NCBI GenBank assembly: GCA_964586075.1
Contig: CAZPGZ010000001.1
Coordinates: 149,099-213,098, forward strand
Length of the DNA stretch: 64,000 nt
Source: an uncultured Nitrospiraceae bacterium
GTDB lineage: Bacteria; Nitrospirota; UBA9217
Reading direction: 5' to 3'
Shown piece by piece: positions 1 through 37,033 of the stretch (the stretch's first letter is position 1; every line of letters begins with the position of its first letter). The translations under genes and the position numbers were made by a program. Under the pieces are notes generated by a model, which was given only the letters and a program-made list of their open reading frames with translations, was not told the origin of the DNA and ran no database searches.

Positions 1-1
1 G

Positions 2-76
2 GTCGTGGATAACGGGAGGCTGGTGGGCATCGTGACTCTTACGGACATTATCAACTATATTGGAGACAAACTCTAA
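2..76 (+). CDS. C-terminal fragment of a CBS-domain protein (5' end lies outside the window)
   Basis: The frame ends ...VVDNGRLVGIVTLTDIINYIGDKL*, a typical CBS-pair C-terminus. Only 25 codons are visible. Confidence 0.4.
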   Translation, partial: VVDNGRLVGIVTLTDIINYIGDKL

Positions 77-127
77 CGATGACCTCAGTTCGCTTGCGTC
101 ATCGGTTCGAATAACCTGCCCGGAGCG

Positions 128-1102
128 CTATGAAACCGGCTTCAGTGTTACATCCCCGGAAGCCACGTGGACCGCGCGTCCGTCATCAAGCGTGATGATA
201 AGCCTGCCTTCGCGATCGATTCCCTGCGCCAATCCTTCGAGAGTATCTTTCAGGCCGCGCACCGTGACCCGATTGCCGATCGTCACATTAAGCTTTTTCC
301 ACTCCGATAAAACGCGTTCTTCATCTTCGAGAAACACCCGGTACCAGTGTTCAAGATCCAGCAGCAATTGGCACAGCAGCGGTGTGCGCCGGAGGTTCTT
401 CCCGGTTTCCGCCGCCAGTGTCGTTATATTTCTGCGGACGTCGGACGGAAGTGCCTCAAGATCCATATTTACATTCAAGCCGATACCCAGCACGATATAT
501 TTGATGCGGTCCTGCTCCGCGCTCATTTCGGTAAGCAGTCCGCTGATTTTCTTTTGTCCGATAAGAACATCATTGGGCCATTTAATGACGGCTTGCTGGG
601 CGAGCATGGTTCGGACTGTGGAAGCAACTGCAACCGCCCCCATGAGAGTAAGAAGAGGGGCCTTCTGCAGCTGAATGTTCGGTTTCAGAACCACGCTGAA
701 ATAGAGATTTCCTTTCGGCGAAATCCATGTTCTGCCGATTCTGCCCTTACCGGCGGTTTGCGTTTCCGCAATGACCACGGTACCTTCAGGCGATGAGAGC
801 GACGCCATCTCCATGGCAAGCGTGTTGGTGGATGCGACCGCGGGATGCAGGTGGAGTGTTCGGCCCATGAATTTGGTCCTGAGCCCCTGGAGTATGTCGC
901 TTTTCCGCAGGGTATCAGGCTCGCTCAAGATTCGGTATCCCTGAGATGGGACGGCCTGGATTCCGAAGCCTTCCTGTTCGAGCGACTTGATATGCTTCCA
1001 GACCATGGTGCGTGAAATCCCTGTTTTCCTGGCTAATTCTTCTCCGGAAAGGAAATCGGCAGGTGATGATCTGAGGAGGCGCAGTATTTTGTCTTTATAC
1101 AT
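128..1102 (-). CDS. birA: Bifunctional biotin--[acetyl-CoA-carboxylase] ligase / biotin operon repressor BirA
   Basis: 324 aa. It has an N-terminal HTH region (ELARKTGISRTMVWKHIKSLEQEG), a BPL catalytic core with a GKGRIGRTW-type motif, and a C-terminal BirA domain. Confidence 0.85.
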   Translation of the reverse strand: MYKDKILRLLRSSPADFLSGEELARKTGISRTMVWKHIKSLEQEGFGIQAVPSQGYRILSEPDTLRKSDILQGLRTKFMGRTLHLHPAVASTNTLAMEMASLSSPEGTVVIAETQTAGKGRIGRTWISPKGNLYFSVVLKPNIQLQKAPLLTLMGAVAVASTVRTMLAQQAVIKWPNDVLIGQKKISGLLTEMSAEQDRIKYIVLGIGLNVNMDLEALPSDVRRNITTLAAETGKNLRRTPLLCQLLLDLEHWYRVFLEDEERVLSEWKKLNVTIGNRVTVRGLKDTLEGLAQGIDREGRLIITLDDGRAVHVASGDVTLKPVS

Positions 1103-1198
1103 TCTTTGAAAACCGGGGCGGCATTACCTCATGTGTGCTTTGCCCGCTGTGGAGTGAGCAAATATGGTGCCGGTGTTGCTCCCGATTGTCCTGCTGTT

Positions 1199-2035
1199 TT
1201 AATTGATGATTTTCATGCTGATATCGGCGGCAGGCGCCGAATGAGTCAGGCTTCCGCAGGATATAAAATCAACGCCTGTTTCCGCGATGGTCCGAATCGT
1301 ATCAAGGGTCACATTGCCTGATGCCTCCACCAGCGCCTGATGGTTGATCAGCGCCACCGCCTCGCGCATCATAGCAACCGTCATGTTGTCAAGCATGATT
1401 ACGTCAGCCTTTGCGGACAGCGCTTCCCGCACATCCTCAAGGGTCCTTGTTTCCACTTCGATTTTAAGCAGATGGTGGGATTTTTTTCTTACCAGGTTTA
1501 CAGCATTTGTAATGCCCCCCGCTGCCGCAATATGATTGTCTTTTATCAGCACGCCGTCGTTCAAACAATAGCGGTGGTTCCTGCCCCCTCCCAGCCGAAC
1601 GGCATATTTCTCAAGCTGGCGCAAACCGGGGTGGGTTTTTCTTGTGTCAAGCACCGCCACCTTCAGCCCCTTAATGCTGTCGAGATACCGGGCCGTCAGG
1701 GTCGCAATGCCGGACAGGTGCTGGAGCAGATTCAAAGCAACGCGTTCTCCCATCAGCAGCGCCCGTGTCTTGCCTGACAGGCGGGCGATCTCTGCACCGG
1801 CGTTCAGACAGTCTCCGTCCCGGGCAAGAGGCTCAAACTCTATTGAAGAGTCAAGGACGTGAAACACTTCCCGGCTTACGGAAATACCGGCGAGAATAAG
1901 AGACTGTTTGGCGGTTATTACCGCAACGGCTTCTGCTTCGGGCGATATCGTTGCCTCCGTGGTAACGTCTCCGGGGCCGATGTCTTCGAGCAGGGTCTGC
2001 TCGATCAGTTTTTTGAGCGCTAAATTGATCATCAA
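1199..2035 (-). CDS. nadC: Nicotinate-nucleotide pyrophosphorylase (quinolinate phosphoribosyltransferase) NadC
   Basis: 278 aa. The QPRTase fold is readable across the full length, with motifs LDTRKTHPGLR and VIMLDNM. Confidence 0.85.
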   Translation of the reverse strand: MMINLALKKLIEQTLLEDIGPGDVTTEATISPEAEAVAVITAKQSLILAGISVSREVFHVLDSSIEFEPLARDGDCLNAGAEIARLSGKTRALLMGERVALNLLQHLSGIATLTARYLDSIKGLKVAVLDTRKTHPGLRQLEKYAVRLGGGRNHRYCLNDGVLIKDNHIAAAGGITNAVNLVRKKSHHLLKIEVETRTLEDVREALSAKADVIMLDNMTVAMMREAVALINHQALVEASGNVTLDTIRTIAETGVDFISCGSLTHSAPAADISMKIIN

Positions 2036-2084
2036 ATCCTAGCTATTCTTGCGGTTCGCTGCAGCATACAGCGCGCGTTTTTAT

Positions 2085-4817
2085 CTAGTTCAGAATCTTC
2101 AGGCTTGTTGCCAGCTTTTCATATTTTGACTTCAGCTCGGCGAGCTTTTCCCGGTTTTTTGCCACGACGTCCTGCGGCGCTTTGTCTACAAAATTTCTGT
2201 TCAGGAGTTTCTTTGACAGGACTTCAATCTCTTGCGATATCTTCGCCATGTCCTTCTGCAAACGCTCGCGCTCCTGGCCCAAGTCAAGAAGACCTTCCAG
2301 CGGGACATACACCTCCGCGCCTTTGATGACGGCCGTAGCGGTTATTTTCGGCTTGCATTCCTCCGTGCCGATGCGAAGATCATTCACGCGCGCAAGCGTT
2401 TTCACATAGGTTGCGCTTTGTTCGAGGTGCTCCCCAAGCTTCGCGTGATCTACCTTTACGATTGCCGTTATCTGCAACGAGGGTGCAATATTCATTTCGC
2501 CGCGAATATTCCTGATCGCCAAAATCAGGTCCATGACCATCTGCATGTCCTGCTCGATCTCGGGATTGATCAGCTTTTCGTCTGCAACAGGATACGGCGA
2601 GACCATGATGGAATCATACTGTTTCCCCGCCTTTGCATGTTCCCCGCAGGACTGGCGGTTTCTGGCCTGTTCGGGCAGGGTCTGCCATATTTCCTCCGTG
2701 ATGAACGGCATAAGGGGATGCAGCAGCCGGAGTGCGGTTTCCAGTACCTGGGCAAGCACCGCCTGGGTCGCCGTGCGGCTGGGAGAATCTTTCTCCTGGT
2801 TCAAGGTCGGTTTTGACAATTCGAGGTACCAGTCGCAGTACTCGTGCCAGATGAACTGGTAGAGCGAAGAAGCAACATCATTAAACCGATATTCAGAGAG
2901 GGCGCATTGTATGTCTTTCGTAACGGAATTCAGCCGCGAAAGAATCCAGCGGTCTGCAAGAGACAGTGGTGCTGTTGCGGACGCAGGAGCCGGAGCAAAA
3001 TCCTGATCCAGATTCATGAGCACGAACCTGCTGGCATTCCAGATCTTGTTTGCAAAGTTTCTATAGCCTTCTATTCGTTCGGGCGAGAGTTTAATATCGC
3101 GCCCCTGCGCCGCAAAAGCGGAAAGAGTGAAGCGGAAAGCATCGGTTCCATACTGGTCTATCATCACCAGCGGATCGATGACATTTCCCCTGGACTTGCT
3201 CATTTTCTGGCCTTCCGCATCGCGTACCAGCGCATGAATATATACATCCCGGAAGGGGACTTCTTTCATGAAGTGAAGGCCCATCATGATCATCCGGGCC
3301 ACCCAGAAGAAGATGATATCAAAGCTTGTGACAAGCACCGAGGTCGGATAGTAAACCTTCAGCTCTCCGGTTTTATCGGGCCATCCCAGCGTCGAGAACG
3401 GCCATAACGCGGAGGAGAACCAGGTGTCGAGGACGTCGGTTTCCTGTCGTATGTTCTTGCTTCCGCATTTTTTGCAGGCAGCGGCGTCCGTCCGCGTTAC
3501 CATAAGTTCACCGCAGTCGTCGCAATACCAAGCAGGAATGCGGTGCCCCCACCAGATCTGGCGCGAGATGCACCAGTCTTTTATATTCCGCATCCAGTCA
3601 AAATAGGTGTTTTCCCAGCCCTTGGGGATGATTCTCACCGCCCCGTCCTCAACAGCTTTGATTGCAGGTTCTGCCAGCGGCGTTGTCTTCACAAACCATT
3701 GCGGTGAGAGGTAAGGCTCAACCACTGCTTTGCAGCGGTAGCATTTGCCGATGGAATGGGCGTGGTCCTCAGTTGTAATAAGAAAACCCCGCTCCTGAAG
3801 AAGCTCCACAACCATGCCGCGCGCTTTCTTGGCTGGTTTGCCGGCAAGGTGCTTCAACACATCAGGCAGCACATCCGGAATATCGGAAAGAATTTCCGCC
3901 TTTTCATTAAGCATCTTTATCCGCAGCAACTCCGGTTTTTGGCGCTGGCCTGCTTCGTAATCGTTGAAATCATGCGCCGGAGTCACCTTGACGGCACCGG
4001 TCCCGAATTCGAGATCAACAAGGATTGAATCGCCGATAATCGGAATTTTGCGCCTCGTGAGCGGAAGATCTACGCTCTTGCCGATGAGACTTTTATACCG
4101 CGGGTCCAGCGGGTGCACGGCAACGGCGGTGTCTCCCAGCATGGTCTCCGGTCTGGTGGTCGCCACCGTCAACCGAATGTTCGGGTCATGGCTCAACGGG
4201 TAGGCAATATGATACAGCTTGCCTTTTTCATCTTCATGCTCAACTTCAATATCGGACAATGCAGTATGGCAGCGCGGGCACCAGTTGATCAGCCGTTCAC
4301 CGCGGTAAATCAGACCTTCTTCATAGAGCGTGACAAAAACTTCCCGCACGGCCCGCGACAGACCTTCATCCATGGTAAACCGTTCGCGTTCCCAGTCGCA
4401 GGAGGCACCCAGGCGCTTCAACTGGCCGATGATCTTGCCGCCATATTCCTTTTTCCACTCCCAGACTTTTTCGATGAATTTTTCTCGGCCAAGACTTTGG
4501 CGGTCAATATGGTCCTTGGCAAGCTGGCGTTCCACTACGTTCTGGGTGGCTATCCCCGCATGGTCCGTACCGGGCAGCCAGAGCGCGTTCCTGCCGCTCA
4601 TGCGCATCCACCGCGTCAAAATATCCTGCAGTGTGGAGTTCAGCGCGTGGCCGATGTGCAGCGACCCGGTCACATTCGGCGGGGGGATTACAATGGAGAA
4701 CGGTGTGCCGGCTGCGTTTTTATCAGCATGAAAATAATTTTTTGATTGCCAATCATGGTACCATTTCTGTTCGACCTGTTGAGGATCATATGTTTTCGGC
4801 AGTTCTTTTCCCGACAT
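2085..4817 (-). CDS. valS: Valine--tRNA ligase
   Basis: 910 aa class I aaRS with a HIGH motif (PNVTGSLHIGHAL), a KMSKS motif and a C-terminal coiled-coil. An AAGGAG RBS precedes the ATG. Confidence 0.95.
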   Translation of the reverse strand: MSGKELPKTYDPQQVEQKWYHDWQSKNYFHADKNAAGTPFSIVIPPPNVTGSLHIGHALNSTLQDILTRWMRMSGRNALWLPGTDHAGIATQNVVERQLAKDHIDRQSLGREKFIEKVWEWKKEYGGKIIGQLKRLGASCDWERERFTMDEGLSRAVREVFVTLYEEGLIYRGERLINWCPRCHTALSDIEVEHEDEKGKLYHIAYPLSHDPNIRLTVATTRPETMLGDTAVAVHPLDPRYKSLIGKSVDLPLTRRKIPIIGDSILVDLEFGTGAVKVTPAHDFNDYEAGQRQKPELLRIKMLNEKAEILSDIPDVLPDVLKHLAGKPAKKARGMVVELLQERGFLITTEDHAHSIGKCYRCKAVVEPYLSPQWFVKTTPLAEPAIKAVEDGAVRIIPKGWENTYFDWMRNIKDWCISRQIWWGHRIPAWYCDDCGELMVTRTDAAACKKCGSKNIRQETDVLDTWFSSALWPFSTLGWPDKTGELKVYYPTSVLVTSFDIIFFWVARMIMMGLHFMKEVPFRDVYIHALVRDAEGQKMSKSRGNVIDPLVMIDQYGTDAFRFTLSAFAAQGRDIKLSPERIEGYRNFANKIWNASRFVLMNLDQDFAPAPASATAPLSLADRWILSRLNSVTKDIQCALSEYRFNDVASSLYQFIWHEYCDWYLELSKPTLNQEKDSPSRTATQAVLAQVLETALRLLHPLMPFITEEIWQTLPEQARNRQSCGEHAKAGKQYDSIMVSPYPVADEKLINPEIEQDMQMVMDLILAIRNIRGEMNIAPSLQITAIVKVDHAKLGEHLEQSATYVKTLARVNDLRIGTEECKPKITATAVIKGAEVYVPLEGLLDLGQERERLQKDMAKISQEIEVLSKKLLNRNFVDKAPQDVVAKNREKLAELKSKYEKLATSLKILN

Positions 4818-4849
4818 GAAATACTATCTCCTTTACTGCACATATCGCC

Positions 4850-4882
4850 TTCAAACTAAAAGAGGGGAACTAGTCCCCTCGT
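4850..4882 (-). terminator. Rho-independent terminator at the end of the chemosensory operon
   Basis: Hairpin GAGGGGA-actag-TCCCCTC (4862..4881), followed on the minus strand by TTTTAGTTT. It lies between the receiver-protein stop codon and the valS promoter region. Confidence 0.5.
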
Positions 4883-4912
4883 CCGGCACTCAGTTATTTT
4901 CGTTATTTGGTT

Positions 4913-6187
4913 CTACGGTGTTTTCTTTAAACGCTCAATCTCTTCTTTGATCAGGTGCTCTGCCAACTGCGGAATTACTTCCCATGCCACCTGCTCAATT
5001 ATGCCCCGCGCAAGCTCCCGGGCCACAGTCATAACCGCTTCCTGGATGCCTCGCTTGATTGTTTCGTCGGATATTTTAGGAATGGGAGGAGGAGGCATAT
5101 CCTTCAATGCATTCATGGTCAACTTTGATGCCGTTTCCGCCACCAGTTTGCGCATATCCTCCATCGGCAATGCCGGTTGCGGAAGCGGCATGCTTTTCAG
5201 GCCATCCGCTACCTGCTTTGATACGGTCTCCGTCACCAGTTTGCGCACGTCGTCCAGCGAGAAAGGCGGCTGTTGCACCGGCGGAGGCACGTTTTTCAGG
5301 GCATCTGCTACCTGTTTTGATACGGTCTCCGCCACCAGTTTGCGCACATCGTCCATCAACAATACCGGCTGCGAAGTCGGCGGCATGGCTGGTTGTAAAA
5401 CGGGTGCGTGTCCCTGCGGCGTGAGAGGCACGGCAGACTGCGCTGTTTCGAACGTTGTATCGAACGATTCGAACGTGACAATCTCCGGCTTGATTTCGTC
5501 AGTTATTTCCGTCAGGCCTAAATTGGCCCGCATCTCTTCCACAGCTTTTGCGCCGGTCGGCAATGCCTGTTCTTCCTGAAGAGATGGCGCTTCGATTTCC
5601 TCGACAACAGGCTCAACCTCGAAAACCGAATCCTCTTCAACGGAGGCGGCAGCCTGTTTGAGATCCGCGCGCGTAGGCGCGCTGCTGATAATGTCGAAAA
5701 TAGATGTCGGCGCCTGCTTTGGTTCACTTGCGGTAACGGAAGGTCGAACGGTACGAGTCTCCTGCTTTGCCGCCTGCTGCTGCGGCTTCGGAGCGACAGG
5801 CGCTTCTCTGCGCGGCGGCGCTGATGCAAGCACTTTTTTCACCTTGCCGATGAGCTCTTGAGATTCGAACGGTTTGACGATTTTATCGGTGATTCCGGCC
5901 TGCTTGCCCTTCGCGGTATCATATACATCGTCTCTGCTCATCATCAGAACAACCGGAATGTGGGAAAGTTTCGGATTATTTTTGAGCTGCGTGGCAACCC
6001 CGTAGCCATCTACCCGCGGCAGATCTATATCAACCAGCACAACGCCCGGAACGGTCCTCTCCACCTCGTGCAGAGCAGCCTCTCCGTCGCTCACACAGAT
6101 GACTTCATACTCTCTTCCGGAAAACAGCATCTCCACGACCTTCTGGATGGTGATGCTTTTATCTGCCAATAGTAATTTAACCGGCAT
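4913..6187 (-). CDS. Response regulator (CheY-like receiver) with a Pro/Gln-rich linker, three 33-aa tandem repeats and a C-terminal amphipathic helix
   Basis: N-terminal REC domain (KLLLADKS...D...K). The C-terminal half contains three copies of D(D/M)VRKLVxETxSKxxxxALK...PPP. The track start at 6202 is a TTG codon, and the first ATG is at 6187. Confidence 0.8.
   Translation of the reverse strand: MPVKLLLADKSITIQKVVEMLFSGREYEVICVSDGEAALHEVERTVPGVVLVDIDLPRVDGYGVATQLKNNPKLSHIPVVLMMSRDDVYDTAKGKQAGITDKIVKPFESQELIGKVKKVLASAPPRREAPVAPKPQQQAAKQETRTVRPSVTASEPKQAPTSIFDIISSAPTRADLKQAAASVEEDSVFEVEPVVEEIEAPSLQEEQALPTGAKAVEEMRANLGLTEITDEIKPEIVTFESFDTTFETAQSAVPLTPQGHAPVLQPAMPPTSQPVLLMDDVRKLVAETVSKQVADALKNVPPPVQQPPFSLDDVRKLVTETVSKQVADGLKSMPLPQPALPMEDMRKLVAETASKLTMNALKDMPPPPIPKISDETIKRGIQEAVMTVARELARGIIEQVAWEVIPQLAEHLIKEEIERLKKTP
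5084..5353. repeat. Three tandem in-frame repeats of about 99 nt (about 90% identical) inside the receiver-protein gene
   Basis: The string tgatacggtctccg(t/c)caccagtttgcgcac recurs. The plus-strand shadow ORF 5107..5424 shows the same periodicity. Confidence 0.8.
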
Positions 6188-6629
6188 GGAACAACCTTTC
6201 AAAATCGAGGATCATGATCGACAGGTCGTTTTCAAAAACGACCCCTTTTACATAGTGTGGATCGACATCAGGCGCCGCTTCTGCCGGGGAGGATGTGCTT
6301 TCTTCCAGCATGGCCATTCGTGCTACACCGTCCACAACAATTCCGAACGGTATCTTTTTTTCTTCAAGCAGAATAATACTTTGTCCGGCACCGGTACTCT
6401 CGTTTGTTTCCGCCGCAAAGCCGATCGGCGCCGATCTGTTCAGGGCCAGCCTTTTTATCAGACTAAAGATCGGGTACACGGTCCCCCGATAATCGATCAG
6501 CCCCTCCACATAAGGATACGACAGCGGCACGGAACGAGACGCGCGCCACGGAAAGATCTCAATAGCACCGTGCAGCTTTGCACCAAAAAGCCTGCCGGCC
6601 AGATGGAACACCAGAAAGCTGCTGATCAT
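6177..6629 (-). CDS. cheW: Chemotaxis coupling protein CheW
   Basis: 150 aa single CheW-like domain. Its stop/start overlaps the adjacent che genes. Confidence 0.8.
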   Translation of the reverse strand: MISSFLVFHLAGRLFGAKLHGAIEIFPWRASRSVPLSYPYVEGLIDYRGTVYPIFSLIKRLALNRSAPIGFAAETNESTGAGQSIILLEEKKIPFGIVVDGVARMAMLEESTSSPAEAAPDVDPHYVKGVVFENDLSIMILDFERLFHAG

Positions 6630-7036
6630 GGCAGCAAACCGTCCTCGTTCAGCAGCAGAACAAGATTGTCTCCGTGCCGCAGAACGCCATTGTAGCAGTG
6701 GAGCCCCGGTGCGACAACTCCTTTCGGCATCGGAATTACGTTTTGGACAGAATCCAGGATATCGGTTACTGCATCGACGAGGATTCCGAAGGTCCGCTTT
6801 TTGTTTTTGACGACCAGAAGCGTCTCCAGCGGGCTGCTGGGAAGTTTGAATAATTTTTTAATGTTCAAAACCGGAATAGGCGACCCGCGATATTCAAACT
6901 TCCCTTCAAAAAAATCATCGAGGCTCGGATCGTTCTGAATATTGCGTGCAACCGTAATCTCCAGAAGCCTCGTGATGGGAATGGCGTACTGTTCGTGTTC
7001 CAAAGACAATATCAAAAACCGTTTGTTTTCAGCCAT
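6626..7036 (-). CDS. cheW: Chemotaxis coupling protein CheW
   Basis: CheW-like domain (FLILSLEHEQYAIPITRLLEI...). The ATG at 7036 sits 4 nt after the CheA stop codon. The track start at 7111 would overlap CheA. Confidence 0.8.
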   Translation of the reverse strand: MAENKRFLILSLEHEQYAIPITRLLEITVARNIQNDPSLDDFFEGKFEYRGSPIPVLNIKKLFKLPSSPLETLLVVKNKKRTFGILVDAVTDILDSVQNVIPMPKGVVAPGLHCYNGVLRHGDNLVLLLNEDGLLP

Positions 7037-7040
7037 AACG

Positions 7041-9725
7041 TTATGTCCGACTGGTAAGTACGGCTCCGCTGAGGAGTTTTTTGAGCGCATCGAGCATTTC
7101 CTGCTCTTCAAACGGTTTTACCAGATAATCCTGCGCTCCCATGTCCTGAGCCTTCTGGCGGTGTTTATCACCGGCCCGGGACGTAAGCACGATGATTGGA
7201 ATATTCGCGAGTTCGGGATTCTTTTTCATCTCGACCATCAGATCATATCCATGCATGACAGGCATTTCCAGGTCGGTAATAACGGCATCAAATTTCACCC
7301 GTCCCATGACGTTCAGGGCCTCCATGCCGTCTGGCGCCACGTGAACTTCATAGCCGGTCCGGTCAAGAAACCGCTGCACATATTTCCGGATGCTTATGGA
7401 GTCGTCAACAACAAGCACTCGCGGCTTTCTTGTAGAAATCTCAGGCGTTGATTCCGGTTTTGCCGATCCTACCGTCGTTCGGGATGCCATCGCAGCCTCA
7501 TCACCGAACAGCGACGCAATATTAAGAATAAGCCGCACGTTGCCGTCGCCGGAAATCGTCGCACCGGAAAACATCCTTATTTCCTTGAGGTAGTCTCCCA
7601 GCGTTTTGACCACGATTTCTTCCCGGCCGATAATGTCTTCCACCATAAGCGCGAGACGTTTTTCCGCCGAGCCGAGAATCAGCGTCGGCTGCCGGAATGT
7701 CTCCTCTTTTTTCGGCAATTTCCCGAGGCCGAGCAGTTCATTCAGTTTCAGAAGTTTTACCAAGGATCCGCGCAGGTTTACCATTTCCTCTCCTGCGGCA
7801 TGCTGAATATCTTTCGAAGAGAACCGTGTGGTTTCTTCGACCAGGTTCATGGGGACGGCTATTTCCTGGTCTTTAAGCTTTACAATAAGCGCTTGTGCAA
7901 TGGCCAGCGTGAGAGGAAGCCTGATCGAGAACTTCGTGCCGATATTTTTTTCCGTTTTTATTTCTATCCGGCCGTGAATGCGGACCAGTTGGTTCGCCAC
8001 CACGTCCATGCCCACGCCTCTTCCGGAAATCTTGCCTATGGTTGCAGCCGTGGAAAACCCGGGCTGAAAAATAAGATTAATGGCTTCCGGGTCTGTGAGA
8101 GCCTGGGCCGCCCCCGGAGTAATGAAACCCTTCTCAACAGCCGTGCTCCGGAGCATGGCCGGATCCATTCCGCGTCCATCATCCTCAATTTCAATAATGA
8201 TGCTGTTTCCCTCATGCCGCGCCTTCAGGACGAGAAGTCCGGTCGGATCCTTTCCGAGTGCCGTGCGCTCCGCAGCCGGTTCGATTCCATGCGATACCGC
8301 ATTTCTGATCATGTGCATAAGCGGATCAGATATGATTTCGAAGACCGTTTTATCGATCTTCGTTTCCCCGCCCGAAAGCACGATGTTTACCTGTTTCCGT
8401 TCTGCCTGCGCAAGATCGCGCACCAGCCTCGGAAACAGCTGATAGAGCTTGTCCATCTCAACCATGCGGGCCAGGGTAATTTCGTCCTGCAGGTTTGTTG
8501 TGATGGTGGAAATTCTCGCCGTATCAACCTCAAACGAGTCAAAGAATCCGGCAAGATCTGTCATGATTTCATTCGTGTCGTTCGTAATTTCCGTGAGTTT
8601 TCGGGAAAGCAGGTTAAAATCATCGTAGCGGTCGAATTCCAGCTCGAGAAAATCGCCGGTCTGTTCCGCCGGTTTTTCACTGGTCCCGGGCGCCTCTATG
8701 CTCAGCGTATATTCGTATTTTTCCTCGAATTTTTTGATCTCGTGCAGCAACCGGTTCTGGCTGAATGCAAGCTCCTCCCGCAGCACTTTTATAAAATCGA
8801 CCTGGTGCGCCAGACGGTTCCGGCTTACAATCATTTCCCCAACCAGATTCATCAGATTGTCGAGGCGATCAATGTTGACCCGAATAAACTGCTTTTCCAG
8901 ATCAGCAACGTCTGTAGCGCGGCGGTTGAAACCTCGCTTTTCAGAAACGCCCGATTTCTTTGCCTCGTCTATTTCCTGCTGAAGCGGCGATTTGTGCGCA
9001 GTCGAAGGCAAATCCGCACGGACTGCTGGAGTCTCCGGCAAGACATCCTGTTCTTCAATTTCCTCAACGGCTGTTTCAATTGCATCGATTTCCTCAAGTT
9101 CTTCCGGCTTTTCAACCTCATTAAGGGCTTGCAGTTCAGCCTCTGCCTCGGATTCCGGCTCCGTCTGAGGCCCTCCGACAGGTTCGAGGGCAGGTTCAGT
9201 AATTGGTTCAGCGACAATCGGCTCTTCCTCGAGACTAAAGGCTTGCTCCCAAGGCAAATTAAGATCTTCGGTCAGGATGGGTGCAACATCGAGATCCGGA
9301 ACGGCCGGGGAGGGAGTAACGGTCTTTTGCAGGCTCTCGGTAACGTCCTTGTATGCTCTGGCGATGCTGTCCACTACCAGCATGTCTTCAGGATCGTTGA
9401 CCGCGACACTGTCGACCATCAGTTTTATTGCGTCTACACTGTCAAAAAGAAAATTGAGGGATTCTTTGCAGATAGGAATGGTTCCTGAACGGAATTGGCC
9501 GAGCATGTCTTCGGCCTTATGCGCCACATCGCTGATGCCCTGGAACCCCATCATGGCAGCCGAGCCCTTCAGCGTATGTGCTGCGCGGAAAAGTTCGTCG
9601 ATCTGGGCAGTGTCAGATGGATCCTTCTCAATAGACAACAGTCCCTTATTCAGGTTCTGGAGGTGATCACCAGCTTCTACGAGAAAAAATTCAATAATGC
9701 CTGCTTTATCTGATGGCCCAGCCAT
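7041..9725 (-). CDS. cheA: Hybrid chemosensory histidine kinase CheA with a C-terminal receiver domain (FrzE-like)
   Basis: 894 aa. Domain order is Hpt (HTLKGSAAMMGF), acidic linker, dimerization domain, HATPase_c (EIEDDGRGMD, GRGVGMD), CheW-like domain, then REC (VLVVDDSISIRK...DLEMP...K). Confidence 0.9.
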   Translation of the reverse strand: MAGPSDKAGIIEFFLVEAGDHLQNLNKGLLSIEKDPSDTAQIDELFRAAHTLKGSAAMMGFQGISDVAHKAEDMLGQFRSGTIPICKESLNFLFDSVDAIKLMVDSVAVNDPEDMLVVDSIARAYKDVTESLQKTVTPSPAVPDLDVAPILTEDLNLPWEQAFSLEEEPIVAEPITEPALEPVGGPQTEPESEAEAELQALNEVEKPEELEEIDAIETAVEEIEEQDVLPETPAVRADLPSTAHKSPLQQEIDEAKKSGVSEKRGFNRRATDVADLEKQFIRVNIDRLDNLMNLVGEMIVSRNRLAHQVDFIKVLREELAFSQNRLLHEIKKFEEKYEYTLSIEAPGTSEKPAEQTGDFLELEFDRYDDFNLLSRKLTEITNDTNEIMTDLAGFFDSFEVDTARISTITTNLQDEITLARMVEMDKLYQLFPRLVRDLAQAERKQVNIVLSGGETKIDKTVFEIISDPLMHMIRNAVSHGIEPAAERTALGKDPTGLLVLKARHEGNSIIIEIEDDGRGMDPAMLRSTAVEKGFITPGAAQALTDPEAINLIFQPGFSTAATIGKISGRGVGMDVVANQLVRIHGRIEIKTEKNIGTKFSIRLPLTLAIAQALIVKLKDQEIAVPMNLVEETTRFSSKDIQHAAGEEMVNLRGSLVKLLKLNELLGLGKLPKKEETFRQPTLILGSAEKRLALMVEDIIGREEIVVKTLGDYLKEIRMFSGATISGDGNVRLILNIASLFGDEAAMASRTTVGSAKPESTPEISTRKPRVLVVDDSISIRKYVQRFLDRTGYEVHVAPDGMEALNVMGRVKFDAVITDLEMPVMHGYDLMVEMKKNPELANIPIIVLTSRAGDKHRQKAQDMGAQDYLVKPFEEQEMLDALKKLLSGAVLTSRT

Positions 9726-25850: not shown

Positions 25851-27788
25851 AAAGATTCCCCTCGGCTGAAATAACGTTCTCTGTGTTTACTCTACTTTTT
25901 ATTTATAGACGTAAAATAAGGGCTGAGAGGATTATCCCTACCAAATAATAGATGTTTATAGGTATTACTAGAACACTCTATGCTGCCACAATTCAAATTT
26001 TCTAAATAGGCCTTTTCATGTAACTGCAGCATTCTTAATGATGTTTCAATGCTTAACCGCACGCTAATCTTATCACTTAATCTAATCAAAGCATTCATAA
26101 GAATATCGAAATATGTATGGAGGTTTTCAACAAGTGTATTTAAATACGGCAAAGCTGAAGCGGAGTGAACTATTTGGTTTCTAGTCGTATAAATTCTTTG
26201 AATATGCCACGCTACCCGTTGACGGTGAGAGGAAATAGTTTCCTTGATTATTTCTGGTTTGTGAAATTTTTCATGACACCAATAGCATCGATTCTTCAAA
26301 AGTGGGTGTTTTTCTAATAAACCGTAAATGTGCAATCTGCAATCTTTCAAATCTGATGAAATGAGAAGACAAATGGATTTATCGAAAAAATTACCTTCCA
26401 CTGGAAGCTCTTCTATATAATTGCGTACAGAATAACCACCATGAAATAGATTTTCGCTTGTATCCTTAAATATTTTTTCAACATACGTTAGTGTAAGTGA
26501 AGGCAATAAATAGTTAAGGTATTGAGTAATTCTTGCCTGTCCATCATCTTCTCTTGGAGGTGGCAAAAAGCCTTCGAGTGCTGCCCATAAACTTACAAGT
26601 TGGTTTTCCGGAGCTACCCCCTCGATTGCTGTCCGGTGATAATCCATTGCCTTTACAAATAAATTTATAGAAGACTCGTCGAATTTACCTTTACCAAGCG
26701 TTTCTATAGTTTCATCAAAGTTTCCAACAAACTTGGCCCTTGTTACTGTGCCACGCTCCATAGGTGCGGGTGGTGATTTAACAACAAAATATTCCTCCTC
26801 ACCATCCCTTTTTACAACACAATTTTGCAACCACGTTGGCTTTCGGTGATGATCATAAAAGCGGTAGATATCGGCAAGCAATTCAATAGATGAGTTTGCT
26901 AATTGACGTGCTATAAACCTGTCTTTTGTTTTGATTTTATCAAATATGATATATTGCGTGTATTGTTCATTTATTCCTAGCAAACCATGCAGGTGTTTCC
27001 TAGATTCTATTTCACTCGGTAACGTATCCAATATTTTAACATCAAGGTTTTCCGCGACCTTTTTAAGTTGACTAAATTCCGCTGATCCTCTAAATATAAT
27101 TTTCCAGGAAATATCCTTTCCTTCAAAAATATCTAAAAATGCTTTTATCTGAGAATGCGAATTTATTTTCCTGGGTAGTGCGGTCCAATTAAAAAAATAA
27201 TTAAGCGTCATAAAGTACAGAAATTGTTTGCTATAACCTCGTAGTTCAATTTCAGCGGTTAAAGCTACTGCCAGTTCTGTGAGCTTTTTTTTCTCATTCG
27301 GATACGCTACGGTCTGCTCAATCTTTCTTCTTAACAAGTACCAATACTTATCTGCAATTTCCGTAAGGAGTGCTCTAGTCGTTGCTCTCAAATCCTCCGG
27401 ATTTTTTGTAAGTTCTTTGAGGTTTTTCAAATATTGCGTACTCAGTTCGGGCATATCTTCTTTAATGATAGGATCGTTCTTAAATCGATTTTCAAGTTCC
27501 TCTACAACTGGATTAAGAGCAGCGGGCTTGACTCGCCCTTTAATTAATTCTGATGCCAGCAAATTTAGCTCTAGAATATTTGTGTGCGTATTCAATGCGG
27601 GAGCCTTGAAAGAGTCAATCGTGTGATGAAATAATAATTCCTCTAATATCTGCGCAAAAAATAGCAAACCCATAGAAGCATCACTCAAATCCCATTTATA
27701 AAGACGCGGCTTAATCATATATGATTTCTCCTTTTTTCAGACCTACTTGGAGATACTGAGGCATTTAAGAAGCGCTTTGGGGACGTTG
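25851..27788. mobile_element. AT-rich cassette of about 1.94 kb bounded by 14-bp perfect inverted repeats (CTTTGGGGACGTTG). No transposase is present.
   Basis: Left copy CAACGTCCCCAAAG at 25851-64. Right copy CTTTGGGGACGTTG at 27775-88, plus an imperfect tandem copy at 27799-813. GC content is visibly much lower than the flanks. Confidence 0.35.
25892..27718 (-). CDS. Large hypothetical protein with a C-terminal HEPN-type Rx4H motif (RNQIVH), proposed here as a candidate abortive-infection or defence RNase
   Basis: 608 aa filling the AT-rich cassette. The motif ...IYTTRNQIVHSASALPYLNTLVENL is HEPN-like (R-x4-H). A CYWCHEKFH Cys/His cluster sits just upstream of it. Confidence 0.55.
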   Translation of the reverse strand: MIKPRLYKWDLSDASMGLLFFAQILEELLFHHTIDSFKAPALNTHTNILELNLLASELIKGRVKPAALNPVVEELENRFKNDPIIKEDMPELSTQYLKNLKELTKNPEDLRATTRALLTEIADKYWYLLRRKIEQTVAYPNEKKKLTELAVALTAEIELRGYSKQFLYFMTLNYFFNWTALPRKINSHSQIKAFLDIFEGKDISWKIIFRGSAEFSQLKKVAENLDVKILDTLPSEIESRKHLHGLLGINEQYTQYIIFDKIKTKDRFIARQLANSSIELLADIYRFYDHHRKPTWLQNCVVKRDGEEEYFVVKSPPAPMERGTVTRAKFVGNFDETIETLGKGKFDESSINLFVKAMDYHRTAIEGVAPENQLVSLWAALEGFLPPPREDDGQARITQYLNYLLPSLTLTYVEKIFKDTSENLFHGGYSVRNYIEELPVEGNFFDKSICLLISSDLKDCRLHIYGLLEKHPLLKNRCYWCHEKFHKPEIIKETISSHRQRVAWHIQRIYTTRNQIVHSASALPYLNTLVENLHTYFDILMNALIRLSDKISVRLSIETSLRMLQLHEKAYLENLNCGSIECSSNTYKHLLFGRDNPLSPYFTSINKK

Positions 27789-28850: not shown

Positions 28851-29276
28851 CTAATAAGGCTCAATCTTATACTTCTCCTTTTTCACCGTCTCATCCTCAA
28901 CCTTAAGTTCGTAATAAGTCCCTCCAATACCTCCGACACGTTCATGCCTGACAACATAGGTTTTTCCAGCCTCGACAATGAAATCCAGCTTCCGCTCAAA
29001 ACTCTGATACCCCCGAAGCCAGACATACACAACGATTGAGTGCTTGCCCGGCAAAAATTCTATTTGCCCGCTGCCGTCCCAGAGGCTGCCGTAAAAATTC
29101 CCCCGCCTTACGCCGTCGACCTCCTTGATGCGAACTGTTTCTGAGGTATCAATGCCACCGGGAATCTTCAAGAGGCCGATTTTTTCCGGAGGCAGGGCAT
29201 CGCCCTGATATATCCGATACGTCGCGCCACAGGAGGTGAGCGATACGAAAAGCAGGACAAGAACTGCTGTGTGCAT
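28851..29276 (-). CDS. Hypothetical lipoprotein
   Basis: Signal peptide with a lipobox (VLVLLFVSLTSCG) from the ATG at 29276. The track start adds 27 aa. Confidence 0.5.
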   Translation of the reverse strand: MHTAVLVLLFVSLTSCGATYRIYQGDALPPEKIGLLKIPGGIDTSETVRIKEVDGVRRGNFYGSLWDGSGQIEFLPGKHSIVVYVWLRGYQSFERKLDFIVEAGKTYVVRHERVGGIGGTYYELKVEDETVKKEKYKIEPY

Positions 29277-29379
29277 GTTGTGTGCGAGAAATCTGTTGCC
29301 TATTTTTATTATCCGAGTCAGTCTGATTTCCATACCATGACCCCTTTGCAGGAACAAACAGCATTATGAAAGGATTTAT

Positions 29380-30339
29380 CTATTTGCTGTTCTTCACAGC
29401 GCGAACAGCTGCCTGCTTCAGATCATCACTGGAGCTCGTGCGGATGATTTCGTTCGCGCCGGCCACAGAGAGGGCTGAGTTCACCAGAACATTGTACAGT
29501 ATCTCTGACGGATTCAGCTCGACCCGCTTGATTGTTCCTTTTTGCTGGCCCTCGTTTGCTTTTATCTTTGCGATGACATCGCTCCCACCCAGAGGATATC
29601 CGACGGCAAATACCGTCATCTGGCCGGAAGCCATCGGTGTTCTCGTTTTCAAGGTCGAATGCTCTTCTCCTTTGGCAAGCACTTTTTCCCCGGCCTTGAT
29701 GGCAATGGTCACAAAATAGCCTTCTGATAATGCTTCGTTAAACCTGTTATACCTTGTCTCACTTTCCACGGACATGTCCGGTTCGCGGGTCAGCTGTTTT
29801 TGAACAACGGGGTCCAGCAGTCCGAGACGGACGCGCGCAATCCTGCCGACTACGTCCTGCGTTCGGGAAATCTGACCAAGCAGCTCAGGATTGCTCAGCC
29901 GTGCGGCAGCGATGCAGCGCACTTCTATTAACGCGTCATTCCGGACAGCCTGCTGAATGGTTTGTTGATCTCTGATCTCGCGGAAGGCAACGAGGCGGAT
30001 GAGAGGATTTTCACTTTTGAACAATTCCGACAGCTGTTGTTCCGCGGCTGTCCTGACGCGGGCGTCCTTGTCTTGCCGGCTTAACCGGCCCAGGTCTCCA
30101 CCTGATGTATTCAGTCTTTTGACGATGTCATTTTTGTCCCAGAAACTCAGAGACCGTATCCAATAGCGCTCACCCAGAGAGCGGATACTTTCGGCCTCTT
30201 TCCTGATTCCCTTCAGCCGATCATCAGGATCATCGCTTTGCATAAGCGGCACCGAGGAGCAGGCTTGAGCCATTACCAGAAGCATGATAATAAACAGCGG
30301 GAAAAATGTTCGGAATCGCGCGGTCAGGTCTTGTGTCAT
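29380..30339 (-). CDS. Hypothetical lipoprotein, helical-repeat (HEAT-like) region
   Basis: Lipobox (MAQACSS) and repetitive alpha-helical content. Confidence 0.55.
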   Translation of the reverse strand: MTQDLTARFRTFFPLFIIMLLVMAQACSSVPLMQSDDPDDRLKGIRKEAESIRSLGERYWIRSLSFWDKNDIVKRLNTSGGDLGRLSRQDKDARVRTAAEQQLSELFKSENPLIRLVAFREIRDQQTIQQAVRNDALIEVRCIAAARLSNPELLGQISRTQDVVGRIARVRLGLLDPVVQKQLTREPDMSVESETRYNRFNEALSEGYFVTIAIKAGEKVLAKGEEHSTLKTRTPMASGQMTVFAVGYPLGGSDVIAKIKANEGQQKGTIKRVELNPSEILYNVLVNSALSVAGANEIIRTSSSDDLKQAAVRAVKNSK

Positions 30340-32824: not shown

Positions 32825-32842
32825 AACGCTGTCATGTTCCTG

Positions 32843-33193
32843 CTACATCTCGCGCGTCAACTGCACTACGACCTCATTCACTTTCATACCTTCATCATGG
32901 AGTGTCCAGGTCTGCGTGATGCTGTACTTGCCTTCAATGGTTATGCCATGAGCGGGCATGTGCACTTTTTTCAACGAAACGAGGTTCGGCGCTTTTTTCG
33001 ACAAGGCAAACTGCATGGTGTTGTCTCCGGATTTCGCGAGCTCCATATGAGGCTGGTTCCCGACGGAACAAGAATGGGTCATGGCAAGCTTTCCATTATT
33101 GTCATGTATACGGTTGGCCCGTCGCAAACTTTTCGACAATCGCGTTCCCTGCAGACGCGAGTTCATAAGTGACCTTTGTGCAAAAGCCTTCAT
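32843..33193 (-). CDS. Hypothetical 116-aa protein translationally coupled to the caspase gene
   Basis: Its start overlaps the caspase stop codon (ATGA-type overlap at 33193). It has no recognisable domain. Confidence 0.4.
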   Translation of the reverse strand: MKAFAQRSLMNSRLQGTRLSKSLRRANRIHDNNGKLAMTHSCSVGNQPHMELAKSGDNTMQFALSKKAPNLVSLKKVHMPAHGITIEGKYSITQTWTLHDEGMKVNEVVVQLTREM

Positions 33194-34560
33194 TATCTAT
33201 TCGGCCCGATCAATTGCGGTATTTGTTCATTGTTATACTGTTTTCTGGCTATCCGCTCCACTTGGGGTTTCATGTAGCTAAACAGATCCTGTATCGCGAG
33301 CGAGCCGTCCTGTTTTACAACATTCTCATTCTTGATTCCCTTGAGTAAAAAATAGGTAAAGAGACCGTGGCCCTTCTCGTCATAGGTCGAGCTGCTCTGT
33401 TCGCCCGAGGAAGCTGCAAGAACAGTTATGTTTTTTGCCATTACTGCGTCATGCTTGAGATTCATGACAAGAGGACGGGCGCCTTTCGCAAGGACCGATC
33501 TGCCGCCCGCGCCCGAGAAGCATGAATCAAGCACAACAATGATTTCCTTTGCCGGTAGCTTTCCCAGGGCGTCGTACATTCTCTTCAGCGAATAACCCGT
33601 CTCCGCGATAAACGTCGGGTCGCCGTCATAGGGAACAAGATAAGCATCCCCCGTCTTGGTGTTGGGAGCCCCGTGTCCCGAATAGTAGATGAAAACAGTA
33701 CTCCCGTGTTCTATATTATTCGGGAGCCATCGCTCGATGTATTTTACAAAATCCCCCAACGCCGCCCGGTCATTTGTGAGGGTAATGATGTTTTCCGCCG
33801 GATACCCCATGGCTTTCGTCAGGTAGTCGGTCACGGTCTGCGCGTCGCTCACGGCAAAATCTGCCGCGGGTAGTTTCTGGCGGTACTGCTCGATTCCGAT
33901 GACAACGGCGTACGCGTTGGGATTCGTCTTCGATTTTGTGATCTGGATGTCGTCGACATCGGATCTGATGAGCGGTTTTGCAGCCTGAGGAAGAGCATCC
34001 TGCCGGCCAAGCTTTGCCAGGATCAACGGACGGCTCTCTTCGATCCTCAGACAGAGATTTTCAATTGCCTGCACCATGGCGCTGTTCATCGGCTCGACGT
34101 CAGCGCTCGCGGAAAACCTCGTCATGCCGCCTTGTACTGTGCTTTGTCCTGAAAACGAACCGAGATCACGCCCGTCCTTCGAAATCAACGCCGCCTTCAA
34201 ATTCGCGGCGTATTGAAAAGAATTGCCTTGCCGCAAGTGGTAGGTGACGTCAATGTTCAGCACGCTGTCCGCAAGGCCGTCCAAAACACGGTCGAATGTC
34301 GAGCGGGCCGCGAGATACCGTACGATCATCCTCTTCAACGATTCCTTGTCTACAGCGATCGGGGTCACTGGATTTGGATCTTCCTCCTTGACCCCCCGAA
34401 TTTCCACATGCACCGAAAACGGCACGGGAACCAGGCTCCTTGACGGAGAATCGACGGGCGCGATCATGACCGTGCGGGACGTGGCGCACCCGCTGAGCAC
34501 AACGGCCGCAAGTAGCATCAGGATCACACTGATTGAGGATATCTTACGCGTTCTGTTCAT
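33193..34560 (-). CDS. Lipoprotein with a C-terminal caspase (peptidase C14) domain
   Basis: Lipobox (LSGC). The caspase His-Cys dyad sits in YYSGHG ... VLDSCFSGAG. An N-terminal domain of about 200 aa is unassigned. The ATG at 34560 follows a GGGGG. Confidence 0.8.
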   Translation of the reverse strand: MNRTRKISSISVILMLLAAVVLSGCATSRTVMIAPVDSPSRSLVPVPFSVHVEIRGVKEEDPNPVTPIAVDKESLKRMIVRYLAARSTFDRVLDGLADSVLNIDVTYHLRQGNSFQYAANLKAALISKDGRDLGSFSGQSTVQGGMTRFSASADVEPMNSAMVQAIENLCLRIEESRPLILAKLGRQDALPQAAKPLIRSDVDDIQITKSKTNPNAYAVVIGIEQYRQKLPAADFAVSDAQTVTDYLTKAMGYPAENIITLTNDRAALGDFVKYIERWLPNNIEHGSTVFIYYSGHGAPNTKTGDAYLVPYDGDPTFIAETGYSLKRMYDALGKLPAKEIIVVLDSCFSGAGGRSVLAKGARPLVMNLKHDAVMAKNITVLAASSGEQSSSTYDEKGHGLFTYFLLKGIKNENVVKQDGSLAIQDLFSYMKPQVERIARKQYNNEQIPQLIGPNR

Positions 34561-34814
34561 AACCTGCCCCCTGGCGGATCGTTGTGTTTGACGGACAACC
34601 AACACGCATTGTCTCTCTAAAAACCAAGCACGCAATAGCAACCCACACTTTTTATGAAATATTATATTTTTCTTTCCCGGCTTTGTAAAGTTATTTACGC
34701 CGATGTTATATGTATCCTACATTGCTGCTTACTGTGTACCTCTATCTTTTTAAAAACTTCGTCTCGCAGGGATTGACTTTTCCCTCTCTTCAATCGTATA
34801 CTTCTTCACGCGCC

Positions 34815-35447: not shown

Positions 35448-36311
35448 ATGATCGCCATTACTGGAGCAACCGGCAGGCTCGGCAGATTGGTCATCTCAGA
35501 GCTTCTTAAAAAGATGCCGCCATCCGAAATCATCGCCACAGTACGGAACGCAGATAAAGCCAGGGATCTTGCGGCCAAGGGTGTAGTGGTGCGTATCGCT
35601 GACTACAATACCCCTTCGGCCTGGGACGCCACGCTCAAGGGTGTTGATAAATTGCTTCTGATCTCTTCGAGCGAAGTGGGGCACCGGCTGAGACATCACA
35701 GCTCCGTGATCGACGCGGCAAAGCGCGCGGGTGTCACGCTCCTTGCGTACACGAGCATTCTGCGACCGGAAACCTCGGCGCTCGGTCTTGCTGGTGAAGA
35801 CAAGGATACGGAATCGTATATCCGCACATCCAACGTGCCGTATGCAATGCTTCGGTACGGCTGGTTCACTGAGAACTATACCCTGAATATTCCCGCGATC
35901 CTGAAGGCCGGGATACTGTATGGCTGCGCGGGCAATGGCCGTGTTTCCTCTGCTGCGCGGATTGACTGTGCAGAAGCGGCCACTGCTGTCCTGACCCGGC
36001 CGGACCAGGCTGGAACGGTGTATGAACTCGCTGGCGACAACGCGCACACACACGCGGAATTCGTTGAAGAAATTTCACGCCAGACAGGCAGAGCGATCAG
36101 CTATGTCGATCTGACCGAGGCGGAGTACCAGGATACTCTCAAGAAGGCGGGAATGCCGGACAAGATTGCTGCACTAATCGCTGATTTCGACACGGCAGCT
36201 TCCAAAGGCGCACTGTACGACGCAGGCCGGGCAATGAGCATGCTGATCAACAGGCCGACAACGCCGATGTCAGCCTCTATCGCAGCGGCGCTGGGGGGGC
36301 AGGATTTTTAA
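35448..36311 (+). CDS. NmrA-like / SDR-family NAD(P)H-dependent oxidoreductase
   Basis: Rossmann motif IAITGATGRLG. Confidence 0.8.
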   Translation: MIAITGATGRLGRLVISELLKKMPPSEIIATVRNADKARDLAAKGVVVRIADYNTPSAWDATLKGVDKLLLISSSEVGHRLRHHSSVIDAAKRAGVTLLAYTSILRPETSALGLAGEDKDTESYIRTSNVPYAMLRYGWFTENYTLNIPAILKAGILYGCAGNGRVSSAARIDCAEAATAVLTRPDQAGTVYELAGDNAHTHAEFVEEISRQTGRAISYVDLTEAEYQDTLKKAGMPDKIAALIADFDTAASKGALYDAGRAMSMLINRPTTPMSASIAAALGGQDF

Positions 36312-36388: not shown

Positions 36389-37033
36389 TTACTTTTTTGC
36401 CGTGACAACAAATAAGGCGCTTTTCCTTCCGACTTCAGGGTGAATATTTTGAAGTGCAGTGCTTTCCCCTATTTTCATTCCACGCAGCTCGCTTTCTAAT
36501 TCATCGGACGAAAAAAAATGAAAGAGTTTGCCTGTTCCGTCATCATACGTATTCGTTTCTATTTCCTTCCATTCGTGTCTCGGATATGATTCGTCCTCCA
36601 GTGACAGCACGCTCATAAACAAGCAGCCATCTTGCTTCAGCACCCGTTTTGCCTGCGTGAGCACCGCTCCTCGTTCTTTTTCGGTCAAACAGTGGAGTGA
36701 ATTCAGCATGACCACCAGGTCAAATGAATCATTCGGCATGCTCTTCGGAATGGAATCGTGCCTGATAAAGCTGCATTTCCCTCCGGGATTTTCATTTTTA
36801 TACGACTTTGCCTTTTCGATTGCTTTGACGGAAATGTCGATTCCGGTGACGTCAAAACCTTCTTTGGTCATAAGAACGGAATAGGCGCCGTCACCGCAAC
36901 CGAAATCCAGTATTGTTTTAACCGGAACTCTATGGAGAAATTGTTGAAGCATGCTCCAGAGGGGTTCATAAATCGGCGTGGACTTGCTTTCTTCGTAGTC
37001 TTTGTCCCATGGATTTACACTATTCGCTGCCAT
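36389..37033 (-). CDS. Class I SAM-dependent methyltransferase
   Basis: Motif I ILDFGCGDG. Confidence 0.8.
   Translation of the reverse strand: MAANSVNPWDKDYEESKSTPIYEPLWSMLQQFLHRVPVKTILDFGCGDGAYSVLMTKEGFDVTGIDISVKAIEKAKSYKNENPGGKCSFIRHDSIPKSMPNDSFDLVVMLNSLHCLTEKERGAVLTQAKRVLKQDGCLFMSVLSLEDESYPRHEWKEIETNTYDDGTGKLFHFFSSDELESELRGMKIGESTALQNIHPEVGRKSALFVVTAKK

Follow-up and report, generated by a model that had tools for sequence, protein, structure and literature searches.

Bacterial metacaspase-like proteins, or orthocaspases (MEROPS family C14, clan CD; PF00656), carry a catalytic dyad located in SGHG and DSCxSG motifs, are often built by modular fusion to protein-interaction domains, and frequently contain signal or transmembrane segments. 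The prokaryotic caspase homologues have been catalogued in a survey, which described a variety of accessory domains, the frequent presence of signal or transmembrane segments at the N-terminus, and a high density of metacaspases in Nitrospirae (Asplund-Samuelsson et al. 2012; PMC3501461). In the literature on lipoprotein caspases or orthocaspases we found only this general survey, and an architecture consisting of a lipobox, an LptE-like domain and a C14 domain was not described. The fold of the protease domain is also shared by MALT1 paracaspase and caspase-7. A second group of proteins relevant to this study are the outer-membrane lipoproteins LptE, PqiC (DUF330, ABC_trans_aux), PelC, CsgG and Cj1090c, of which the LptE/PqiC/PelC family consists of stand-alone proteins.

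Here we analysed a caspase gene and the reading frame overlapping its stop codon in a 64,000-nt stretch of DNA from an uncultured Nitrospiraceae bacterium (the whole stretch is called the window below). The caspase encoded in the window shares with the described orthocaspases the C14 dyad, and its clade shares with them the modular design and the frequent export signals. It differs from the surveyed metacaspases in that it is a lipobox lipoprotein with a predicted LptE/PqiC-like N-terminal module, an architecture for which our search returned no Pfam family. In contrast to MALT1 and caspase-7, to which its protease domain is 14–18% identical, it is bacterial and exported, and lacks death and Ig domains. 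Its N-terminal module is only 10–23% identical to the LptE, PqiC, PelC, CsgG and Cj1090c lipoproteins, has no Pfam membership and, unlike the stand-alone LptE/PqiC/PelC proteins, is fused to a protease. The locus is best explained as a stand-alone, functional caspase lipoprotein gene lying side by side with an unrelated, dead remnant of a secreted-protein gene, a reading to which we assign a probability of about 85%. The features of the locus are collected in Table 1.

Table 1. Positions of the caspase gene, its parts and the neighboring gene remnant in the window
Feature	Position	Strand	Evidence
Intact lipoprotein caspase homologue (Peptidase C14), 455 aa, stop codon included	33193..34560	minus	ORF, Pfam, orthologue alignment
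Signal peptide and lipobox, aa 1-25 (L-S-G-C; Cys25 at 34488..34486; +2 residue Ala)	34486..34560	minus	sequence reading
N-terminal domain, aa 26-185, predicted alpha/beta fold like LptE / PqiC (DUF330) / PelC / CsgG lipoproteins	34006..34485	minus	
Linker between N-terminal domain and protease, aa 186-215, low confidence, poorly conserved	33916..34005	minus	pLDDT 44-50 (blocks 181-200), alignment
Caspase (C14) protease domain, aa 216-455 (His296 at 33675..33673; Cys347 at 33522..33520)	33196..33915	minus	Pfam, invariant dyad
116-aa ORF, pseudogene remnant of a 176-179-aa secreted-protein gene	32843..33193	minus	homologue search, tblastn, sister genome
Remnant piece A, encodes KVTYELASAGNAIVEKFATGQPY, homologue aa 61-83, frame -3 (different from the 116-aa ORF)	33108..33176	minus	tblastn, 78-83% identity
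Remnant piece B, homologue aa 90-176, frame -1 (the ORF's frame)	32846..33106	minus	tblastn, 56-73% identity
Candidate promoter-like site 5' of the caspase gene, TTTACA-17-TATAAT, 11/12 matches	34661..34689	minus	consensus scan only

An intact caspase lipoprotein gene

To define the caspase gene, the start codon, the export signal and the pattern of nucleotide substitutions were considered. The mechanically derived ORF extends over 482 aa from a TTG at position 34641 to 33193 on the minus strand, and it was described in this form, with a lipobox, in the preliminary description of this DNA. While the end of the ORF and the lipobox were confirmed, the start is the ATG at 34560, which gives a protein of 455 aa; this ATG is preceded six bases upstream by AGGGGG, the orthologues begin at the equivalent position, and it is the start used by gene callers on three independent metagenome contigs, whose called genes encode a protein 100% identical to that of the window. 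The C-terminus is co-linear with those of 14 homologues in the alignment. The N-terminus, MNRTRKISSISVILMLLAAVVLSGC, consists of a signal peptide and a lipobox (LSGC). When examined for a positively charged n-region, a hydrophobic h-region and a lipobox of the form [LVI][ASTVI][GAS]C, it agreed with the pattern of signal peptidase II substrates (MNRTRK-ISSISVILMLLAAVV-LSGC), and G24 and C25 were invariant in 15 homologues. The comparison with the caspase gene of the closest relative, the Nitrospirota chromosome OY760142.1, showed 63 differences in 1368 nt, which were distributed over the three codon positions as 14, 11 and 37. This distribution indicates purifying selection on the intact caspase gene. 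No further caspase paralogues were detected in the window by tblastn.

The protease domain was assigned using sequence profiles and a structure model. The Pfam profile PF00656 (Peptidase_C14) matched residues 217–450 with an E value of 1.1e-16 and a score of 61.7 bits against a cut-off of 21.4. The dyad motifs, YYSGHG with His296 and LDSCFSGAGGR with Cys347, were invariant in all 15 close homologues, and SGHG together with DSCxSG was present in 118 of the 120 best database matches. The best NCBIfam match was NF047832, “caspase, EACC1-associated type” (E 5.1e-26), yet the score of 91.5 bits is below the curated cut-off of 140, and hence the protein is not a member of that family. The nearest solved structures by sequence were those of fungal metacaspase-1 (7qp0 and 4f6o). 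An AlphaFold2 model built on an 11-sequence alignment had a pLDDT of 73.6 for the whole protein, with loops below 50 and a moderately confident protease domain. In a Foldseek search with this full-length model the C-terminal part matched the MALT1 paracaspase domain (E about 1e-7, TM-score normalised to the target at most 0.64), while the modeled protease domain matched procaspase-7 with an E value of 1.4e-4. The moderately confident model thus places the protease domain in the caspase–haemoglobinase fold, and the profile, the dyad motifs and the fold agree in assigning the gene to Peptidase C14.

The approximately 190 residues preceding the caspase domain had no match in Pfam or NCBIfam. Specifically, the caspase gave no Pfam match to PF04390 (LptE) or PF03886 (ABC_trans_aux) at E ≤ 0.1, and one remote stand-alone relative of the N-terminal domain matched LptE at an E value of 0.088, which is below the Pfam threshold. 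Hence, the two features ascribed to the protein in the preliminary description, an unassigned N-terminal region of about 200 aa and a caspase domain with the His (YYSGHG) and Cys dyad, both held on the level of domain profiles. When residues 26–190 were modeled alone with AlphaFold2, the pLDDT was 90.7 and the pTM 0.86, and the predicted fold matched the structural lipoproteins LptE, PelC and CsgG. When the full-length model was compared by Foldseek, its N-terminal part independently matched 2iqi and LptE. These models confidently predict an LptE/PqiC/PelC-like lipoprotein fold, and the assignment of this fold to a previously unassigned domain of an exported bacterial caspase homologue is one of the gains of the analysis. 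The segment joining this domain to the protease varied in length and sequence across the homologue alignment.

To collect relatives of the isolated N-terminal domain, 1.84 billion representative proteins were searched exhaustively, which yielded 21 relatives at E ≤ 1e-3. In some of them the domain is joined to a caspase or to HEAT repeats, and many are stand-alone proteins of 175–200 aa. The exhaustive search was used instead of a word-index search, which returned no match at E ≤ 0.01 even though an identical protein (P0001) and 50–69% identical proteins are present in the database; the failure to recover a protein residing in the database was treated as an artefact rather than as absence of relatives.

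The likeness of the N-terminal domain to structural lipoproteins could suggest that the caspase homologue is a non-catalytic pseudo-protease, in which the LptE-like domain carries the function as a structural lipoprotein of outer-membrane assembly. This idea could draw further support from the 2012 survey (PMC3501461), according to which only 57% of the metacaspases of Nitrospirae retain the Cys–His dyad. We regard it as highly doubtful for this protein, given that the dyad with its flanking motifs is invariant among the close homologues and present in nearly all of the best matches, as described above, and that no part of the protein is better conserved than the protease domain, with 75–79% identity across different architectures. 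A catalytically competent protease is the better reading of these data.

A decayed gene remnant behind the caspase stop codon

The first base of the ATG of a 116-aa ORF is the last base of the caspase stop codon TAA (33195..33193), and the ORF had no match in Pfam or NCBIfam. The preliminary description was accurate in reporting this overlap with a domain-less ORF; it had further proposed that the product is a co-translated partner of the caspase, such as an inhibitor, substrate or regulator. To learn what the ORF encodes, its translation was used in a database search, which returned 16 proteins. One of these is a 79-aa product identical to residues 38–116, and this piece, starting from Met38, is the only one predicted by gene callers at the locus. 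The other 15 (P0122–P0136) are 176–179 aa long, begin with a signal peptide and have a mature part of about 150 residues; they were 56–71% identical to the 116-aa ORF over only about 75% of the query, with the alignments starting from about residue 34. The C-terminal halves of these secreted proteins are 56–73% identical to residues ~34–116 of the ORF, while the window copy differs from them in lacking the signal peptide and the N-terminal ~60 residues, in being frameshifted and in having substitutions at invariant sites. The family itself has no Pfam assignment, as the search of Pfam at E ≤ 1 gave sub-threshold noise only, and its profile found nothing better than an E value of about 1 among PDB sequences.

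To map the remains of the ancestral gene, four full-length members of the family were used as tblastn queries against the window. The data showed two pieces in different frames (pieces A and B in Table 1), while nothing in the window matched homologue residues 1–60, and residues 84–89, which correspond to about six codons, were deleted between the pieces. As a result, about 24 codons of the ancestral gene are read out of frame in residues 8–30 of the ORF. The 15 full-length proteins have 63 invariant positions in common, of which 31 were missing or scrambled in the window copy. Of the 32 that it retained, 4, all in piece B, carried substitutions unique to the window (Y to S, E to K, H to P, Y to H). 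The window copy is thus not a single-frame, full-length coding sequence with a signal peptide, and by inspection of the sequence no Shine–Dalgarno sequence precedes either of the two possible starts. Between the caspase gene and the remnant, a consensus scan gave no convincing intrinsic terminator and nothing above the shuffled expectation.

These data explain how the ORF arose. The 5′ end of the secreted-protein gene, comprising the signal peptide and about 35 mature residues, was lost where the gene now abuts the caspase stop codon. In the window the remnant also underwent a 1-nt deletion followed by a deletion of ~17 nt, which scrambled about 24 codons and restored the frame by accident, so that a long ORF overlapping the caspase stop survived. 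The TAATG overlap is a scar left where the truncated gene meets the caspase gene, and it is not evidence of coupling. The truncation is fairly recent, because the retained C-terminal half is still 56–73% identical to the homologues. The locus also illustrates that two frameshifts which compensate each other in a pseudogene can produce an open, overlapping ORF. Because the frame is open and its ATG overlaps the caspase stop, some translation of the 116 codons is possible.

Two antisense ORFs were also noted. An ORF of 112 aa (32834..33172, plus strand) lies antisense to the remnant, and in L002 a 178-aa antisense ORF was called in place of the NUDIX gene. Both are almost certainly shadow ORFs rather than genes.

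To follow the fate of the remnant in another lineage, genomes were scanned for close relatives of the locus, and one was recovered, the Nitrospirota MAG chromosome OY760142.1, in which the caspase is 95% identical and has the same AcpH–caspase–NUDIX–flagellin neighborhood. The base-by-base alignment showed that the junction directly after the caspase stop codon is the same as in the window. The sister sequence does not have the 1-nt deletion of the window, and its ATG reads in frame into VTYELTSAGSAIVEKFAADQSHEM. On the other hand, ~265 nt are deleted from it, which corresponds to the whole conserved C-terminal half of the remnant; the alignment places the breakpoints apparently at GAGATG, a sequence that occurs at “HEM” and again at the terminal “REM*”. 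What is left is a 31-codon ORF ending in ...HEM*, which runs straight into the shared 3′ flank and is followed directly by the same NUDIX gene. The two sister lineages thus share the truncation and then decayed independently, which is the signature of a pseudogene.

The upstream side of the locus also differs between the two genomes. In the window an NmrA-like gene (35448..36311) and a SAM-methyltransferase gene (36389..37033) lie between AcpH and CheD, while in OY760142.1 (L014 3066..3116) CheD and AcpH are adjacent and both genes are missing. Their absence from the sister chromosome shows that the caspase gene lies beside a strain-variable insertion/deletion region.

The co-occurrence of the two genes was surveyed from both sides. 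Downstream of six caspase orthologues that are 48–69% identical and share the N-terminal domain (P0002–P0007), the small gene was present in none of the six contexts, the position being occupied instead by unrelated small ORFs, caspase paralogues, an Lcl_C protein or a 586-aa protein. In five orthologue contexts of 48–64% identity the absence was determined by tblastn in three and by gene calls in the other two, and tblastn showed no trace of the small-protein family in the loci L010–L013. Conversely, no caspase gene was located near three full-length homologues of the small protein (P0122, P0123 and P0126), whose neighbors were SnoaL-like, DsrE, ferritin, YHS, hydrolase or acyl-CoA-ligase genes. 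Hence, a conserved, translationally coupled pair was not found, and a two-gene caspase system is absent here.

Several observations at this locus could speak for a genuine gene that is translationally coupled to the caspase and encodes its dedicated inhibitor, regulator or substrate. The TAATG overlap is joined to an open frame of 116 codons, the locus is identical in three independent metagenome assemblies, and the C-terminal 85 aa of the ORF are recognisably conserved. These features are outweighed by the out-of-frame origin of residues 8–30, the missing Shine–Dalgarno sequence, the loss of half of the invariant residues of the family, the lack of the small gene or the caspase in all nine other contexts examined, and the loss of the conserved half altogether from the 95% identical relative. 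Additionally, because the signal peptide is gone, the product could not enter the periplasm, the predicted site of action of the caspase. A dedicated partner is therefore extremely improbable, and the proposal of a co-translated partner, which had been made dependent on conservation of the small ORF next to caspase homologues, can be dropped as a false lead.

It could also be considered that the remnant was co-opted as a short cytoplasmic protein, either of 79 aa from Met38 or in the 116-aa form, with a new function unrelated to the caspase. The prediction of the 79-aa ORF by gene callers would agree with such a role, and the second deletion, by restoring the frame, could point to selection for keeping it open. 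However, frame restoration by a deletion of 1 nt and then ~17 nt is within chance, and the product would be half of a single compact domain, which is unlikely to fold. The substitution of four invariant positions only in the window copy, the lack of a ribosome-binding site and the deletion of exactly this part from the sister genome also argue against co-option, which we consider highly improbable. The 116-aa ORF is a dead, 5′-truncated and twice-frameshifted gene remnant, and not a partner of the caspase.

A family of exported caspases and a putative envelope role

To place the caspase among its relatives, a database search was carried out, which gave nearly 4000 matches at E ≤ 0.001 among 8000 candidates scored. 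Hundreds of metagenomic proteins, whose sources included Nitrospirota, Syntrophales/Desulfobacterota and the like, were 75–79% identical in the protease domain, which was the most conserved part of the protein across architectures. The N-terminal parts of the family members varied, and contained ankyrin repeats, DUF2846, PDZ or no Pfam domain, while the N-terminal domain of the window caspase was shared by only 11 of the best 120 matches. The majority of these best 120 have a lipobox or a signal peptide. The caspase of the window is thus an ordinary member of a very large family of exported bacterial caspase homologues. Tandem arrays of paralogues were observed in L012 (six genes, 1–8590), in L015 (two genes, 571–4964) and on the contig of P0004 (two genes), and the paralogues within arrays differ in their N-terminal domains, which are ankyrin, DUF2846 or LptE-like. 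The swapping of N-terminal modules on a nearly constant protease domain is a further gain of this analysis, and this modular, array-forming family might merit a study of its own.

The arrays in two independent contigs (L012 and L015) are closed by a DUF3617 protein of ~138 aa, which is preceded by an 89-aa ORF in L012 and by a DUF4384 protein in L015. Because of this position, kinship of DUF3617 with the remnant family would have revived the partner idea; such a relationship was rejected, as the hhalign probabilities were 1.6% and 0.7%. The DUF3617 protein is a possible conserved accessory gene of caspase arrays, unrelated to the remnant in the window.

The combination of a lipobox, an LptE-like domain and a C14 domain suggests a testable docking-and-cleavage model for extracytoplasmic bacterial caspases. 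From the sequence we infer that the protein would be exported by the Sec pathway and lipidated on Cys25. With Ala instead of Asp as the +2 residue, it would probably be sorted to the outer membrane and reside in its inner leaflet, according to a rule derived from E. coli that may not hold in Nitrospirota. The LptE-like module would dock or oligomerise on an envelope partner, as the LptE/PqiC/PelC lipoproteins do, and position the tethered protease in the periplasm. The exchange of the N-terminal module on a near-constant protease domain among paralogues fits a targeting role of this module. The tethered protease would then cleave proteins of the envelope or periplasm. Its probable preference for cleavage after Arg or Lys is suggested by the metacaspase-type D-S-C motif, which has Asp two residues before Cys. 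Neither a cognate beta-barrel gene nor Mce/Pqi genes were seen next to the caspase gene.

In a broader and speculative extension, the lipoprotein caspases of Nitrospirota and Desulfobacterota could form a modular periplasmic proteolytic system, in which a near-invariant protease is combined with interchangeable N-terminal modules (ankyrin, DUF2846, PDZ, HEAT or LptE-like), often in tandem arrays of up to six genes. Each module would bring the common protease to an envelope target of its own, and the LptE/PelC-like module would dock on an outer-membrane beta-barrel or a secretion pore, for envelope quality control or defence. As a complete picture this is unlikely, and we put it forward tentatively.

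Further genes of the region could be related to these subjects. The presence of additional lipoprotein genes nearby, also noted in the preliminary description, was borne out at least in part, as a lipobox was identified in the products of 29380..30339 (AQAC) and 28851..29357 (LTSC). The latter gene, located on the minus strand two genes beyond the flagellin gene, encodes a 160-aa lipoprotein with a sub-threshold match to DUF2846 (E 0.073), which is the N-terminal module of some caspase paralogues (P0088 and the second gene of L012). Judging from this similarity, its product may represent a caspase targeting module that occurs on its own. Further along, a 608-aa ORF (25892..27718, minus strand) with no Pfam match contains near its C-terminus an R-x4-H motif (RNQIVH) reminiscent of HEPN nucleases, and could be an accessory or defence gene in a mosaic region.
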